The notes beneath the pieces are model-generated. The model was not told the origin of the DNA, searched no databases, and was given only the letters and a program-made list of their open reading frames with translations. Below are positions 6,823 through 61,168 of a stretch of DNA of 64,000 bases, piece after piece. The DNA is taken from positions 3,424,001-3,488,000 of the forward strand of contig OZ001293.3 of NCBI GenBank assembly GCA_963921275.4, read 5' to 3'. The stretch is from an uncultured Hormoscilla sp. GTDB lineage: Bacteria; Cyanobacteriota; Cyanobacteriia; Cyanobacteriales; Desertifilaceae. Within the stretch, counting starts at the first letter, position 1. The number at the start of each line of letters is the position of its first letter. The position numbers were made by a program, and so were the translations under genes.

Positions 6823-7733
6823 GTGCGATTCGTTCGTAAATGACCCGCAACAGGTCATGAGCGACCGGTTACATCAACCGGGAACTTTGATGTTCATGGG
6901 GGTTAAATTCCTCCCGCCCAGATGCAGGGTTGACACCGGTCGGAGGTGCTGCGGAGCGATATCACCGTGGTGCTGAGCGAGGACTCAAATGTAGGATAGC
7001 TGGTAGCCTAAATCGGTGACTCCGCTAGGAAAGATATCCAAGGTTAGAACAAGCGAACGTATAAAAACCTCGTTAACCAAAACCAGCGGAATAAGGCTAT
7101 ATACGCTGGCCCCAAAAGGGGAAGCAGTCAGGGCTAGCTTTGGGCAGTGGCTAGTCATGTATCCGAAAGACTGTCGGGGAATAGTACGGACCTAAAGATA
7201 TCGTGAAATGACATCAAGGAACGAAGTAACCTCTCGTGTGCTGTCTGGTCTCGACCGGCTAGACAAGTTAGATATTAAGCGCAAGCCACGGGAGGAGGGA
7301 TGTCCCAAAAAGCAAATGCCCAGGGTAATGCCTGGGATAACGCCCGGAGCAATCCCGGTGATGTCCACAAGGACGCTGACGTGGGACGGATATACCAGGA
7401 TGCTGTTCAGATTAGTAACTCCACATATATTATGAGCCCGATTTGGACCCCTCGGGGACTGATGGAGGTATGAGTGAAGGTGTAGGTGAAACAGGGTGAC
7501 TGCCGTCGGACGGCGATATAAACTAGGCGAGAGACCACAGGTTCCTTGACAACCGCTCGCTGACCTGCACATAGAAGGAGCCAACAAGTAGACAGTAAGG
7601 GCCTACGGTGGGTAACCCCTATAAAGCCTATCCATGACAAGGACCTGGTAACCAGTAGCCGTGTGCGGTGAAAGTCGCAAGCACGGTTTCGCTCTTGGAG
7701 GGTTGGGGAGCGATTCCCAGCTCGACCCCGACT
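6823..7733 (+). ncRNA. ORF-less group IIB intron in the IS982 transposase
   Basis: 5' GTGCG; DV AGCCGTGTGCGGTGAAAGTCGCAAGCACGGTT at 7657; DVI to 7733; EBS1 GGGCAG pairs with exon CTGCTT and EBS2 AACCAA with TTGGTT; removal restores GCT TAT TTT TTT GGA. Confidence 0.92.
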
Positions 7734-8625
7734 ATTTTTTTGGAGGACACCAGGATCCTTCTCGTAAATTTCTGGCAGAACACAACTATATAAAAAATCT
7801 GTTAAGTAAAAGTAGATTAAACCGTCGATTACATAACATAGGCGAACCAATTTGGATGTGTTTATTCCCGAGCATGTCTCAAACATTTAAAGAGCTAAAC
7901 CCGGGTCAAGAATATATTATTGATAGCTTCCCTGTACCAGGATGTGACAATATTAGGATTAGCAGGTGTAATGTAATATTTATACCGGCGAAGAATACCG
8001 AGGATATAGCGTAAAAAACGTTATTTTTCTGGTTTGCGAGTTCATATGTTGGTAAACAAAAGTGGGAAACCAATAGAATTTTATCTAACCCCTGGTAGTT
8101 ATAATGATGCTAATGTTCTCCAATCTTTTTGCTTCGAGCTACCATCAGAGTCGATAGTTTATGGAGATAAGGCTTATAATAGAGGATTTACTAAAATTAT
8201 CACTAAATTTCATGTTGAAACGCGCAAGAAAAATTAAAAAAGAAAGGAATCTGCCTGCTTTGAATATGTACAGAAAGTAACTAGAAAACAAGTTGAAACC
8301 TGTTTTAATCAGATAACTAATTTATTTACCAAGACAATACATGCTGTTACATCCCAAGGATTCGAGTTGAAAACGATGCTCTTTATCATCGCTTTTTGTA
8401 TTCAATTTTTTTAAGTAGCAACTTGAGTTATCAATATCTTACTACTCTTCAGCCTATATTCAGCACAACAATGTATTACATAATGATTACATTTAGCTTG
8501 TGATTTTGCGAAGCTAAAAGCTCATCAACGACCCAGAAAACACGTATTGCTTGATATACTACAATAACTAGAAAAAATCGGGTGGTTTACTGGATATTTA
8601 CTTCAGCCCGGATGCACTAGAGTAT

Positions 8626-9017
8626 TTGCAGAGTGCTATAGCTCAAATGGTAGACCCTCGCAAACCTAGTAACGCGACAATTTATACCCTAGGAGATATG
8701 GTAATGAGTGCGTTTGCGGTGTTTTTCAGCCAATGCGGCTCTTTTTTAGAGTATCAAGGTCAGGTGCAGCAGCAAAATGGCAAAGACAATGTACAGAGGT
8801 TATTTGGAGTTGCGAGGATTGCTAGCGATCATCAGATTTGAAACATCTTAGACCGAGTCTGTGCTCAGGTGTTCTTTCCTGTGTTTGTGTCGGTGTATTT
8901 GGCGTTACAGCAGAATGGATATCTAGAACAATATCAAGTTTTAAAAGGAAACATATTAGTCGCAATCGATGGAGTAGAATACTTTAATTCCGAGAATATC
9001 CATTGCGCTTGTTGTTG
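8626..9017 (+). mobile_element. ISNCY-type transposase N-terminal remnant
   Basis: DPRKPSNATIYTLGDMVMSAFAVFF...LVAIDGVEYFNSENIHC..C; internal stop. Confidence 0.65.
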
Positions 9018-9322
9018 TACACTGCCAATTGACGAGTCAAACCAATTTGCAAAGCCTGCAACAGGATATCCTTGACTAGTACAATCTGGAAAGGTAGAAC
9101 CAACAATTCATCAATTAATTGCTCTGCATTTGTCTGTAGCAGTCCTTGAAACCGGACTTTCTTCCACAAAACATTGACGCACTCTATCAGGCCAAATTCG
9201 GGAATATACAAACGATCGCCCTGGTACATACGATCTACCAAGAACTGTACCTGTGGCGTGTAGGTATCTGCGTAGAGATAGTGAGCTACTACACTGGTAT
9301 CAACTACATAACTTCCCGCCAT
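8984..9322 (-). pseudogene. vapC: PIN-domain VapC toxin, C-terminus truncated by the IS remnant
   Basis: YVVDTSV...IECVNVLWKK...LAVY then breaks. Confidence 0.8.
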
Positions 9323-58857: not shown

Positions 58858-58970
58858 GGCGTTGCACAATCACGGGATGATGAGCATAGTTGCAGAAGTT
58901 TTAAACTTAGACTACAAGCTATTTTCAGTTATGTGCAAAAAATAGTATCATCCCCAAAATGTACAACGCC
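58858..58970. mobile_element. 113-bp MITE
   Basis: IRs GGCGTTGCACA / TGTACAACGCC; 8-bp TSD ATTATACC. Confidence 0.85.
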
Positions 58971-59425
58971 ATTATACCATACAACGGGTACATCTCAGTT
59001 AGGCGATGAGTAATTATACTTAGTGCTTGTCTCCCTCAAAACGGTACATAATTTAGGCACTGTTGACCACCCTTGACCCATGAACTCCCAAAAGCAGGCT
59101 GAACTCCAGCAACATCTTGACGCGATTGCCGCGATTCTCTACCAGGAAGCCGACCCCACTGAACTCACCACCCTTGAAGGCATTGAGAAAAACGTTCGTG
59201 CGCTTGCCCAAGAACACGTCTGGCCTCAACTAGGAATTTTTTTATCAACACGGCGACTTCCCGCCGCACCGGAAAACAGCGCACCCTGACCAGTATCCTG
59301 GGCAAACTAACCCTCACCACTGCTCAAGCCCAACAACTGCAAGTTAAACCGGGAACTCGTTGGAGTCCGTATGTGGAAAAATGTTGTTGGGTCGTCAGTG
59401 CCAATGCCTCTTACCAGAGAGCCGA

Positions 59426-61168
59426 TTTTTCGGGCCGTCCGCGGACCGTACAAGATCTCGCGATGCTGACTGGGGTGAGCATCTCCCACAGTACGCTCCA
59501 ACGCTTTGTTCAACGAGAGGACTGGTCTGAGGTAGTGCGATTCGTTCCGGCATAAGCCAGTAGGTGAAAGTCGGGTCTGGCTCTATCAGCCAGATAACTC
59601 TGGTTATCATGGGGGTTAAATTCCCTTTCCCCAGGTACGGGGGTCGAGGGTACTACCGGTCGGAGGTGCTACGGAGCCACATCGCCGTGGTACCTCCCGA
59701 GGACTTAAATGTAGGATAACTGGCAGCCTAAGCCGGTGACGCCGCTAGGAAAGATGCTAATGGTTAGAACAAGCGAACCTATGTAAACCTCGTTAACCAG
59801 AACCAGCGGAAGAAGGCTTATGCGCTTGCCCAAAAAGGGAAATGGTAGTTAGTATTAGCTCTTGCCTCTGGCTAATAACGTACTCAAAGAACTCCCGGGG
59901 TATAGTAGGAACCTAAAAGCATCGTGAAATGATACTAGGGAACGAAGTAACCTCTCGTGAGCTATCCCCATTTGGACAAGTTAGATGTAAAGCACAAGCC
60001 ACGAAGAAGAAGGATGTCCTAAGAAGCTAACGCCCAGGGTAATGCCTGTGGATATGCAGACGTAGGACGGATATGGTAAGACACCCTTGGGAAAAGTAAC
60101 CTTAATGTCACAGAACTAGGGAGAAATTCCGAAAGTACGAATTTTGGATTCAAATCTTAGCCAGGTAAAGTTCAGAGCCCTTACGAAAAGCGGAAAGCAG
60201 AATGGGGAAGATGTTAGTAAAGAGCGGCGAGTATGGTTTGCTGAACTATCCTCCGCGAACCTTCCGCAGCTCAGTACTTAAACGGTCCAATAGGATTGAC
60301 CATAAGGGGTAAAATTTCAAAGGGTAAGGGACAACGGGGGTAACCCCCAGTAATCCTACTGATGACAACAGCTTACCAACCAGTAGCCGTGTGCGGTTCC
60401 AGTCGCTCTTCAGGTTTCGCTCTTGGAGGGTTGGGGAGTGATTCCCAGCTCGACCCCGACCGAGATAGCTGAACCGATTCAGGAGCTCAGCTTGGATGGC
60501 GGCATGATTCGCCTTCGTACCGATTTTTCGGGCCGTCCGCGGACCGTGGAGGGTCAACCTGGTGAGTGGCGAGAATACAAAGCCTTAAATGTCCATGAGC
60601 AAGGCAGTGTGGCTTTCTTCAAGGATAATCAAGGGCTGCTTGAGTGGGTGAATGCCCAGCCCCTCGGGGCGCAGTTCACCGGTCTCGGAGATGGTCATGA
60701 TGGGGTGTGGAACATTTTCAGTGGTATCGGGACACCAGAACAACGTATCGAAGTGCTCGATTGGTATCACCTAATGGAAAATGCCAATAAGGTGCAAGGG
60801 ACACCGGCTCAATCCGATTTTTCGGGCCGTCCGCGGACCGTGCAGATCCGATTTTTCGGGCCGTCCGCGGACCGTGCACTCCTGTGGCGAGGGGAGACCC
60901 AGAGGGCGATTAGTTATCTGCGCCAACAGCAATGTCGGGGAGCCACAGGGTTGATCAACTACTTGAAGCACCATCAGACGCGCATCATTGACTACCAGGC
61001 TAGCCCTCCTGGCGTCGGGCCGCTGCGCGAACGGGCAGGCAGCTCGGCACTCGATTGGCTCTGGTCGGGTTGAGTCCCTGGTGAAACAAATTGGGTTAAG
61101 GGTGAAATTACCGGGGGCACAATGGCGAGCCGAGAATGTGCCGATTTTTCGGGCCGTCCGCGGACCGT
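59426..61168 (+). repeat. Five identical 24-bp inserts TTTTTCGGGCCGTCCGCGGACCGT
   Basis: At 59426, 60524, 60818, 60852 and 61145, each immediately after CCGA. Confidence 0.95.
59535..60461 (+). ncRNA. ORF-less group IIB intron in the ISKra4 transposase, DV degenerate
   Basis: 5' GTGCG; EBS1 TGCCTC pairs with exon GAGGTA and EBS2 ACCAG with CTGGT; removal gives WSEV|EIAEP. Confidence 0.9.

Follow-up and report, generated by a model that had tools for sequence, protein, structure and literature searches.

The chromosome of this uncultured Hormoscilla sp. carries a swarm of ORF-less group IIB introns that have probably been retargeted through changes in their EBS loops and spread by reverse splicing with the help of resident IEPs acting in trans. 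The introns are homologous, lack ORFs, covary with their sites in all three EBS/IBS pairings, occupy many sites as near-identical copies, and share the chromosome with intact IEP genes. Each subfamily possesses its own EBS1, EBS2 and EBS3 loops and, in the proposed mechanism, would insert at sites that are complementary to them; the excised intron RNA would reverse-splice into DNA and then be copied into cDNA, with RT, maturase and DNA endonuclease provided in trans by RT-GIIM-HNH proteins from the same chromosome. The three introns of the window, i.e. the whole 64-kb stretch of DNA that was analysed, are a sample of about 350 copies spread chromosome-wide by changed target-recognition loops.

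Three homologous introns in the window

The original prediction placed three homologous ORF-less introns (int1, int2 and int3; Table 1) within IS982, IS701 and ISKra4 genes, all sense-oriented. Full-length alignment and NCBIfam matches of the hosts agree with this, and at the level of sequence comparison int1–int3 are confirmed as homologous ORF-less group IIB introns. Each begins with GTGCGATTCGTTC (at 6823, 30542 and 59535) and they are alignable from end to end, with the 3´ terminal letters ...GACT, ...ATTC and ...GACC, respectively. RT similarity was found inside none of the three, and the 93 RVT_1 matches of the genome all lie outside the 64-kb window. The predicted length of ~0.9 kb fits int1 and int3 but not int2, whose greater length is due to an additional D5-D6 of 103 nt. 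Of the group II models of Rfam, RF00029 (D5-D6) is matched above its gathering score once in int1 (7654-7720, 45 bits) and twice in int2 (31334-31410 and 31437-31513, 44.4 bits each), whereas the D5 of int3 is aberrant and the D1–D4 models had no match in the window at E ≤ 1. An alifold consensus of 62 subfamily representatives has 61 pairs, 39 of them with compensatory changes and 98.3% canonical.

The hosts were tested as fragments and their NCBIfam scores are for this reason all below the whole-protein cut-offs. Exon 2 of the int1 host matches NF033520 (IS982; 7736-8011, 43 bits), exon 1 of the int2 host (60 aa) matches NF033540 (IS701; 24 bits) and Pfam DDE_5 (23 bits), and the two pieces of the int3 host match NF033572 (ISKra4; 40.5 and 87 bits). 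The int1 host is ~85% identical in its DNA to the abundant intact IS982 and has frameshifts noticed by eye; its alignment with two intact IS982 copies gave an intron junction without gaps and in-frame read-through. Seven intron-less ISKra4 copies join exactly at 59534/60462. The int2 host is likewise degenerate, with an in-frame stop upstream at 30317 (by eye), and its single other copy in the genome is also occupied. In four contig runs, the contigs extend beyond the int2 junctions by 24 and 29 nt, below the 31 that define a bridge. In a sponge-metagenome run, a 3,655-nt contig has similarity beginning exactly at 31516.

Table 1. Features of the window (positions of the whole stretch)
Feature	Position	Strand	Details
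IS982 copy, intact, intron-less, 274 aa	5814..6638	+	NF033520, 194.9 bits; adjoins the int1 host
IS982-type transposase gene hosting int1, degenerate	6695..8014	+	exons 6695-6822, 7734-8014; more frames downstream
int1 IBS2, spacer, IBS1	6810..6822	+	IBS2 6810-6815 TTGGTT; IBS1 6817-6822 CTGCTT
int1, ORF-less group IIB intron, 911 nt	6823..7733	+	GTGCG 5´ end; RF00029; 3´ end from IS982 alignment
int1 EBS2	7075-7080	+	AACCAA; alifold, column covariation
int1 EBS1	7142-7147	+	GGGCAG, 9-nt hairpin loop; alifold, column covariation
int1 EBS3	7182	+	T, pairs with A 7734; alifold, column covariation
IS982 copy, intact, intron-less	20712-21536		
IS701-type transposase relic hosting int2	30362..31755	+	exon pieces 30362-30541, 31516-31755
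int2 IBS2, spacer, IBS1	30529..30541	+	IBS2 30529-30534 CTTTAT; IBS1 30536-30541 GATTCT
int2 whole, ORF-less group IIB intron, 974 nt	30542..31515	+	
int2 core, complete 871-nt subfamily-0 intron	30542..31412	+	870/871 identical to modal copy of 139
int2 EBS2	30797-30802	+	ATAAGG
int2 EBS1	30865-30870	+	AGACTC
int2 tail, second D5-D6	31413..31515	+	102/103 identical to last 103 nt of subfamily-0 intron
IS982 copy, intact, intron-less	46925-47749	-	
ISKra4-type transposase gene hosting int3	59301..61073	+	pieces tested 59301-59534, 60462-61070
int3 IBS2	59522-59527	+	
int3 IBS1	59529-59534	+	
int3, ORF-less intron, 927 nt	59535..60461	+	subfamily 2 (16 copies, 13 flanks)
int3 EBS2	59795-59800	+	AACCAG
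int3 EBS1	59863-59868	+	TGCCTC
int3 non-canonical domain V	60385..60416	+	3´ strand GTCGCTCTTCAGGTT, loop TCCA

Genome-wide census

With nhmmer profiles built from the alignment of the three window introns, 468 5´ ends were found, 356 of which pair with a 3´ end at 600–1300 nt and constitute the complete ORF-less copies. These form 62 clusters at 95% identity (the largest with 139, 72 and 16 copies) and begin with GTGCG in 354 cases, the remaining two having GTGTG and TTGCG. They sum to 314 kb, or 4.6% of the chromosome, and intron-like DNA overall amounts to 541 kb (7.9%). The copies represent 319 distinct 60-nt site contexts, of which 198 are in unique DNA; 32 of the 319 sites are nested inside other introns. 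Recency is seen among the 123 copies with a length of 871, where 61 are identical and the mean is 1.03 differences. Replication-strand bias was not detected, the strand counts being 177 and 142 without pattern along the chromosome and the GC skew weak. Among the genomes searched, the ORF-less swarm is restricted to this genus, and the literature search returned neither a report of such a swarm in the genus nor a prokaryote with more than 101 introns.

Covariation of recognition loops and target sites

Retargeting of the family through EBS changes, as predicted from the window, holds genome-wide for EBS1 and EBS2, and EBS3-IBS3 covaries as well. The window loops match their own 5´ exons with 6, 5 and 6 of 6 pairs for EBS1 and 6, 6 and 5 of 6 for EBS2 in int1, int2 and int3, respectively; the EBS1/IBS1 pair predicted for int2 was thus found, with one mismatch in IBS1. 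The 319 sites carry 49 EBS1/EBS2 combinations. A mean of 5.05 of 6 pairs is formed between IBS1 and the intron's own EBS1 and 4.03 of 6 between IBS2 and its own EBS2, compared to 2.84 and 2.24 with foreign loops, which reach at least 5 pairs in 8.3% (EBS1) and 3.5% (EBS2) of comparisons. EBS1 forms at least 5 pairs at 260 sites and 3 or fewer at 29, and 23 of the latter adjoin or sit inside other introns, where the boundaries may be off. Alignment column 361, the EBS3 position, is complementary to the majority IBS3 (the first 3´-exon base) in 19 of 20 EBS types, which is the pairing characteristic of subgroup IIB.

The subfamilies of int1 (subfamily 10, with five complete copies in the genome), int2 and int3 have 4, 115 and 13 different 5´ flanks, respectively, and these are mostly not IS. 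In subfamily 0, the 115 different 20-nt flanks have the consensus GAGTCT, the exact complement of its EBS1. Flanks within a subfamily share only ~13 bases, namely those that pair with the subfamily's own EBS. A family-independent protein-contact signal was considered and rejected: an A at -15 is frequent (0.54–0.75) in the large subfamilies, but conservation is not seen once every EBS type is given the same weight.

Rearranged and variant introns

int2 is best read as deriving from the mixed splice of a self-nested twintron. The duplication of its 3´ part is recognised by TRF as 103 x 2.0, and of the two 3´ splice sites, 31412/31413 and 31515/31516, it is the one in the tail with which the host frame is restored. 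One subfamily is inserted into itself, at a fixed position, and the junction between core and tail in int2 is identical to that in five such self-nested twintrons. A lariat formed from the inner intron's 5´ splice site and the outer intron's 3´ splice site could then have retrohomed into the IS701-type relic.

In int3, it is domain V that departs from the canonical form. A search of 141 nt gave no Rfam match even at E ≤ 10, RF00029 included, and the MFE is -6.9 kcal/mol compared to -14 to -17 kcal/mol in canonical D5. The D5 of int3 and of 35 other copies should not fold, which counts against the explanation that we favour. This variant (B) comprises 36 census copies and 39 motif matches in this genome, with none in four congeners, and occupies 33 distinct EBS-matched sites; another (variant A) has 18 copies at 17 distinct EBS-matched sites. 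Eight variant-D5 copies lie in genes in sense orientation. The variants are scattered across the D1–D3 tree, from which it follows that recombination between copies does occur. One possibility, to which we assign little weight, is that, as with the protein, these introns obtain their catalytic domain V in trans, from the hundreds of other introns resident with them. If true, a trans-acting D5 would represent a natural bacterial intermediate between self-contained group II introns and a spliceosome-like system with trans-acting catalytic RNA.

Interrupted host genes

A 905-nt ORF-less copy, at 1800238-1801142 of the chromosome, interrupts the sole enolase gene and leaves its exons in frame; the gene is uninterrupted in three congeners and split at another position in a fourth. 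Other interrupted housekeeping genes are those for G6PD, RibD and glutamate synthase. Since the hosts include the only enolase gene, we infer splicing of the ORF-less introns in vivo. Sites in ORFs of at least 150 aa are sense in 86 and antisense in 57 cases (p 0.019). D-Ala-D-Ala ligase was discarded as an example of an essential interrupted gene: the true ddl (260 bits) remains intact, the interrupted genes being two ATP-grasp paralogues. The search of sequencing runs yielded no RNA run of this organism; 0.06 of the words were present in one metatranscriptome.

Alternative modes of spread

As the introns encode no protein, the RT, maturase and DNA endonuclease have to be provided in trans; the original prediction likewise had the family depend on an RT/maturase elsewhere, of putatively relaxed specificity. 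The suggested check for an intact RT identified 73 ORFs of at least 250 aa that match the IEP; at least 17 are full length, with the domains RVT_N, RVT_1, GIIM and HNH, and lie in ORF-containing relatives on this chromosome. Their closest solved chain is PDB 6me0_C (E 3e-114), which we take to be the TeI4h protein of T. elongatus, and we infer that the RT-GIIM-HNH proteins of these relatives mobilise the ORF-less introns in trans. The cognate IEP could not be named from the similarity of ribozymes or of D4, because the best matches between ORF-less and ORF-containing ribozymes are only 66–81% identical over 72–274 nt in parts of D1–D3 and a search for D4 similarity between them found none; this, too, counts against the mode of spread that we favour. 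At this level of likeness no recent ORF deletion is visible; in one singleton subfamily, the first 182 nt are identical to an ORF-containing intron. It might be argued from the lack of a nameable cognate and of D4 similarity, and from the fact that the 93 RVT_1 matches need not all be intron-encoded, that these ORF-less introns do not depend on the resident IEPs and rely on unaided self-splicing and reverse splicing, on another RT or on cDNA recombination. This is very unlikely considering the 17 full-length intron-type RT-maturase-HNH genes, and we know of no group II intron mobility in cells without protein. Moreover, proteins of this kind have been shown experimentally to mobilise ORF-less relatives in trans in Thermosynechococcus (PMC2882425). 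A different view would be that the introns have spread mainly as DNA, by IS transposition, segmental duplication or recombination, with the EBS/IBS matches as relics of a few old homing events. Three ISKra4 copies that hold the same 96%-variant intron within near-identical flanks, two twintron loci with common flanks and the recombination of D5 variants are in line with such events. As the main route, DNA spread is highly improbable in view of the number of distinct contexts, most of them in unique DNA, and since DNA duplication does not produce flanks that share little more than the EBS-pairing bases; extension of the flanks of most copies into shared repeats beyond the IBS was not seen.

The original prediction also had the family parasitising, or silencing, IS elements. 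Specialisation on insertion sequences is suggested by the position of all three window copies, sense in transposase genes, and by ISKra4, of which 4 of 11 copies in the genome are occupied (int3's included) and 7 empty; a parallel is family F4 of Thermosynechococcus, which is described as sitting in an IS200 element (PMC2882425). However, the enrichment in IS that the prediction had itself called for is absent: 9 of 319 sites are in multi-copy mobile protein families, compared to 93 among 2000 points picked at random outside introns (odds ratio 0.60, p 0.18), in a test that leaves low-copy IS relics such as the int2 host unflagged among sites and controls alike. At the DNA level, 10 of 319 sites are within non-intron repeats, transposases account for 2 of the 86 sense-interrupted genes (both ISKra4), and 100 further sampled sites included no Pfam transposase family with more than one member. 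The ~80 intact IS982 copies of the genome are empty, and their site homologous to that of int1 (TTAGTT, CTGCAT) is two positions off the int1 IBS. The seven empty ISKra4 copies carry an IBS identical to that of the int3 site, an observation that counts against our preferred explanation. Specialisation on IS is already largely refuted by these results and we consider it extremely unlikely; the window's IS982, IS701 and ISKra4 hosts account for 3 of the 319 distinct sites, and are incidental and not a preferred target.

Comparison with known systems

RmInt1 of Sinorhizobium meliloti is a bacterial group II intron that, like the window introns, is sited in an insertion sequence, its home site being in ISRm2011-2. 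It encodes its own protein and has an IS as its natural target, whereas IS sites are a small minority here. The Trichodesmium group II twintron, as presented in PMC4649490, is similarly an intron within an intron in a cyanobacterium, but differs from the present case with its 32 nested sites among 319, its self-nesting at a fixed position and a copy, int2, that is apparently derived by mixed splicing. Arthrospira platensis, like the organism studied here, is a filamentous cyanobacterium that is heavily loaded with CL-type and ORF-less group II introns; its 101 introns are the highest number that Miura et al. (2022; PMC8919778) recorded for a prokaryote in their survey. Compared to the survey's figure, the largest published, the 468 5´ ends and 356 complete ORF-less copies found here represent about four times as many introns, with census criteria that differ from the survey pipeline.

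This scale, with ~8% of a bacterial chromosome being group II intron, 49 naturally retargeted specificities and interrupted housekeeping genes, provides a natural library of EBS/IBS/EBS3 pairs for the design rules of targetrons, and a bacterium suited to the question of how cells cope with a eukaryote-like intron density. The D5 variants and the putatively twintron-derived int2 are material on how far introns can share ribozyme parts.

The TeI3/TeI4 group IIB1 introns of Thermosynechococcus elongatus comprise 28 copies in six families that are 85–100% identical (Mohr, Ghanem and Lambowitz, 2010; PMC2882425). Among them, ORF-less copies outnumber ORF-containing ones, families are set by changes in EBS1, EBS2 and EBS3 to which the IBS correspond, the insertions occupy genes, intergenic DNA, an IS element and, as twintrons, other introns, and RT, X/maturase, D and En domains make up the IEP, all as in the present case. 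The differences are in number, with 356 ORF-less copies, 62 clusters and 49 EBS combinations at 319 sites here, and in kinship, the ORF-less and ORF-containing introns being so far apart in D1–D3 that they do not have the relationship expected from ORF deletion. Mobility was demonstrated experimentally in Thermosynechococcus and is deduced from the genome here. The mechanism is thus already known from Thermosynechococcus, and the new element is the scale.

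Three ORF-less introns in the window

The three ORF-less group II introns of the window (int1, int2 and int3) all start with GTGCGATTCGTTC and align over their whole length (alignment A1). The 3´ ends were set by comparison with intron-less copies. Two IS982 copies of the window, both intact, align gap-free to the two exons of int1, and the host frame reads through once the intron is removed. The int3 junction (59534/60462) is an exact join in seven intron-less ISKra4 copies, four copies being occupied, including the host of int3. The 3´ end of int2 was placed at 31515 because of homology, and this end restores the IS701 frame. 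The exon pieces were assigned to IS982, IS701 and ISKra4 by NCBIfam; by eye, frameshifts and stops mark the IS982 and IS701 hosts as degenerate. In int1, int2 and int3, respectively, the intron loop EBS1 forms 6/6, 5/6 and 6/6 pairs with its exon site IBS1, and EBS2 forms 6/6, 6/6 and 5/6 with IBS2. This confirms the original prediction of three homologous introns in these genes with EBS loops matching their own 5´ exons.

Location of introns and other features
Feature	Location	Strand	Remarks
int1 (IS982-type host)	6823-7733		One RF00029 (D5-D6) match above gathering score, 7654-7720, 45 bits
int2 (IS701-type host)	30542-31515		Two RF00029 matches above gathering score, 31334-31410 and 31437-31513, 44.4 bits each
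int3 (ISKra4-type host)	59535-60461		No RF00029 match in the Rfam scan of the window
Match to first 196 positions of intron 5´ profile	32282-32488	-	Weak, E 3e-4
3´ fragment of another group II intron, ORF-containing	42534-42950	+	RF04357 weak D5 match at 42909-42950, 30.4 bits, E 0.01
22-nt tandem array	20430-20538, 21583-21828		Unit ACGGTGTTACCTTACTGCTCGC
Intact IS982 copy	20712-21536		Flanked by the array
GC-rich element, ~28-34 nt	59421-59448, 60520-60547, 60812-60878		CCGATTTTTCGGGCCGTCCGCGGACCGT; repeated within ISKra4 reading frame
CRISPR-DR28 matches (Rfam)	28022-28045; 23418, 23475		35.7 bits; 27.9 and 27.8 bits
57-nt repeat, two units	23407-23521		
Split enolase gene	G000:C1:1799881-1801613		Chromosome
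Self-nested twintrons	G000:C1 1325884, 5180205, 6411996, 6031315, 4743593		Chromosome

One further intron remnant, and a second probable one, occur in the window. The weak profile match just downstream of the int2 host is probably a decayed intron 5´ fragment, and the ORF-containing fragment carries an HNH-like C-terminal coding stretch, stop-broken by eye, ahead of its weak D5 match. Among the other features, the intact IS982 copy sits as if inserted into the 22-nt array, and the GC-rich element has matches at many other sites across the genome. The CRISPR-DR28 matches, found in the 57-nt repeat and at one single site, resemble a dispersed palindromic repeat more than a CRISPR array. Outside the chromosome, contig C3 (31.4 kb) has 17.6% G+C vs 47% for the chromosome, and the 10.1-kb contig C4 is a tandem satellite with a unit of ~65 bp by eye; each of the two may be of foreign origin.

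A retargeted family across the chromosome

Near-full-length blastn matches across the genome numbered 5 for int1, 240 for int2 and 73 for int3. A census with profiles of the 5´ half and the D5-D6 region, built from A1, gave 551 and 440 matches, every one on the chromosome. Intron 5´ ends account for 468 matches, 356 of which have a partner 3´ end at a distance of 600-1300 nt. At 95% identity these ORF-less copies form 62 clusters, the largest having 139, 72, 16, 14 and 11 members; the clusters of int2, int3 and int1 hold 139, 16 and 5 copies. The copies total 314 kb (4.6% of the chromosome), and intron-like DNA including ORF-containing relatives amounts to 541 kb (7.9%). A genome-wide RF00029 scan returned 867 first-look candidates, 150 of them scored. 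Folded to a consensus, the 62 representatives show 61 pairs, of which 39 have compensatory changes, with EBS1 in a 9-nt hairpin loop. Within the 139-copy cluster, 61 of 123 modal-length copies are identical, with an average of 1.03 differences per 871 nt, a near-identity that points to a very recent burst. The family was found in 4/4 other species of the genus (7, 117, 75 and 190 first-look candidates vs 459 here) and was found in none of 21 searched genomes of other genera.

Counting those with usable EBS loops, the copies occupy 319 distinct sites and have 49 EBS1/EBS2 combinations. At these sites, own loops form 5.05 of 6 EBS1/IBS1 pairs and 4.03 of 6 EBS2/IBS2 pairs, vs 2.84 and 2.24 for foreign loops, and at least 5 EBS1 pairs are seen at 81.5% of sites with own loops vs 8.3% with foreign ones. 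The 20-nt upstream flanks of the 139-copy cluster come in 115 different versions, which share only A.C.TTA..GAGTCT, where GAGTCT is the exact complement of the cluster's EBS1, AGACTC. Tabulated genome-wide, the loops support the predicted retargeting through EBS changes. The first 3´-exon base is A at 226/319 sites. In 19 of 20 EBS types, the intron column with T at window position 7182 is the complement of the majority base at that exon position; this is the EBS3-IBS3 contact, by which subgroup IIB is defined. Other introns contain 32 of the 319 sites, and 41 adjoin an intron.

Host genes and splicing

The suggestion that the family parasitises or silences insertion sequences was not upheld. 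At the DNA level, 10/319 sites lie inside non-intron repeats of at least three copies. At the protein level, both flanks fall in the same multi-copy family at 9/319 sites vs 93/2000 random non-intron points (odds ratio 0.60, p 0.18), a comparison blind to low-copy IS relics such as the int2 host, equally so for the controls. None of the 86 sites with a junction-spanning sense ORF of at least 150 aa has a Pfam transposase match at E<=1e-12, and transposases among these hosts amount to two ISKra4 sites. Among 100 sites sampled from the other 164 non-nested ones, each Pfam transposase family had at most one member. Ordinary genes serve as hosts: histidine kinases, pentapeptide and TPR proteins, RibD, glutamate synthase, G6PD, glutaminase, an EF-G-like GTPase, QueG, three genes for intron-encoded proteins (IEPs) and enolase. 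The three transposase hosts in the window are best regarded as a conspicuous sample that the first-stage reader selected, not a family property. Genes of the Uma2 family (putative restriction endonucleases) are the commonest neighbour or host (2/86 sense hosts, 5/100 sampled other sites), which may simply reflect a very large family in this genome.

Sites in ORFs of at least 150 aa are sense in 86 cases vs 57 antisense (p 0.019), and 74 vs 35 in unique DNA only. Enolase_C matches only twice in the genome, once in each half of a single gene, and between the halves lies a 905-nt ORF-less copy that has a canonical D5, in-frame exons and, by eye, 5/6 EBS1 pairs. The gene is uninterrupted in three congeners (G001-G003) and split elsewhere by ~2.4 kb in the fourth (G004). 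As indirect evidence, this interruption counts in favour of splicing in vivo.

Two aberrant copies

In int2, an entire 871-nt copy (870/871 identity with the modal sequence) is followed by that intron's final 103 nt (102/103). At five loci, representing four distinct sites, one copy from the 139-copy cluster sits within another, behind position 768, and the insertion point AAGTCT|A is similar to the cluster's own target. The inner-end/outer-tail junction of these self-nested twintrons exactly equals that of int2, which has no outer 5´ part. The simplest origin for int2 would be a twintron lariat that took its 5´ splice site from the inner intron and its 3´ splice site from the outer one, and then retrohomed.

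In int3, D5 has the 3´ strand GTCGCTCTTCAGGTT and the loop TCCA, and folds at -6.9 kcal/mol vs -14 to -17 for canonical copies. Searched as a 141-nt stretch, it matched no Rfam family even at E<=10; the homologous int1 stretch scored 45 bits. There are 39 occurrences of the motif in this genome and 0 in the four congeners. Its carriers are scattered over the D1-D3 tree, which implies that copies recombine with one another. They occupy 33 distinct sites with 9 EBS1 types and 5.24/6 EBS1 pairs, and their sense-coding share is alike (8/33 vs 68/251 canonical copies).

Protein supply and relation to known systems

The genome has 93 RVT_1 matches and 73 IEP-like ORFs of at least 250 aa, 17 of which span RT through the HNH domain; RVT_N, RVT_1, GIIM and HNH domains were shown for two of these. 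The nearest solved chain to the IEP is 6me0_C (E 3e-114). These intact ORFs lend support, as a reading, to the predicted dependence on an RT/maturase elsewhere. The ORF-containing introns are ~2.4 kb, one being nested inside an ORF-less intron. In parts of D1-D3, their ribozyme halves share just 66-81% identity with the ORF-less subfamilies, except for one singleton ORF-less subfamily whose first 182 nt are identical to an ORF-containing intron, and no D4 similarity was found between the two kinds. Hence no cognate protein can be named, and the mobilisation of ORF-less introns in trans by resident proteins stays a matter of inference.

Literature searches found no paper on Hormoscilla and introns and none on larger intron expansions. 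The prokaryotic maximum given by Miura et al. (2022; PMC8919778) is 101 introns. This kind of system is already known, and what is new is its scale and the two aberrant copies, int2 and int3. The same biology is described by Mohr et al. (2010; PMC2882425), with 28 copies and six EBS families there, compared with 356 ORF-less copies and 49 EBS1/EBS2 combinations here.
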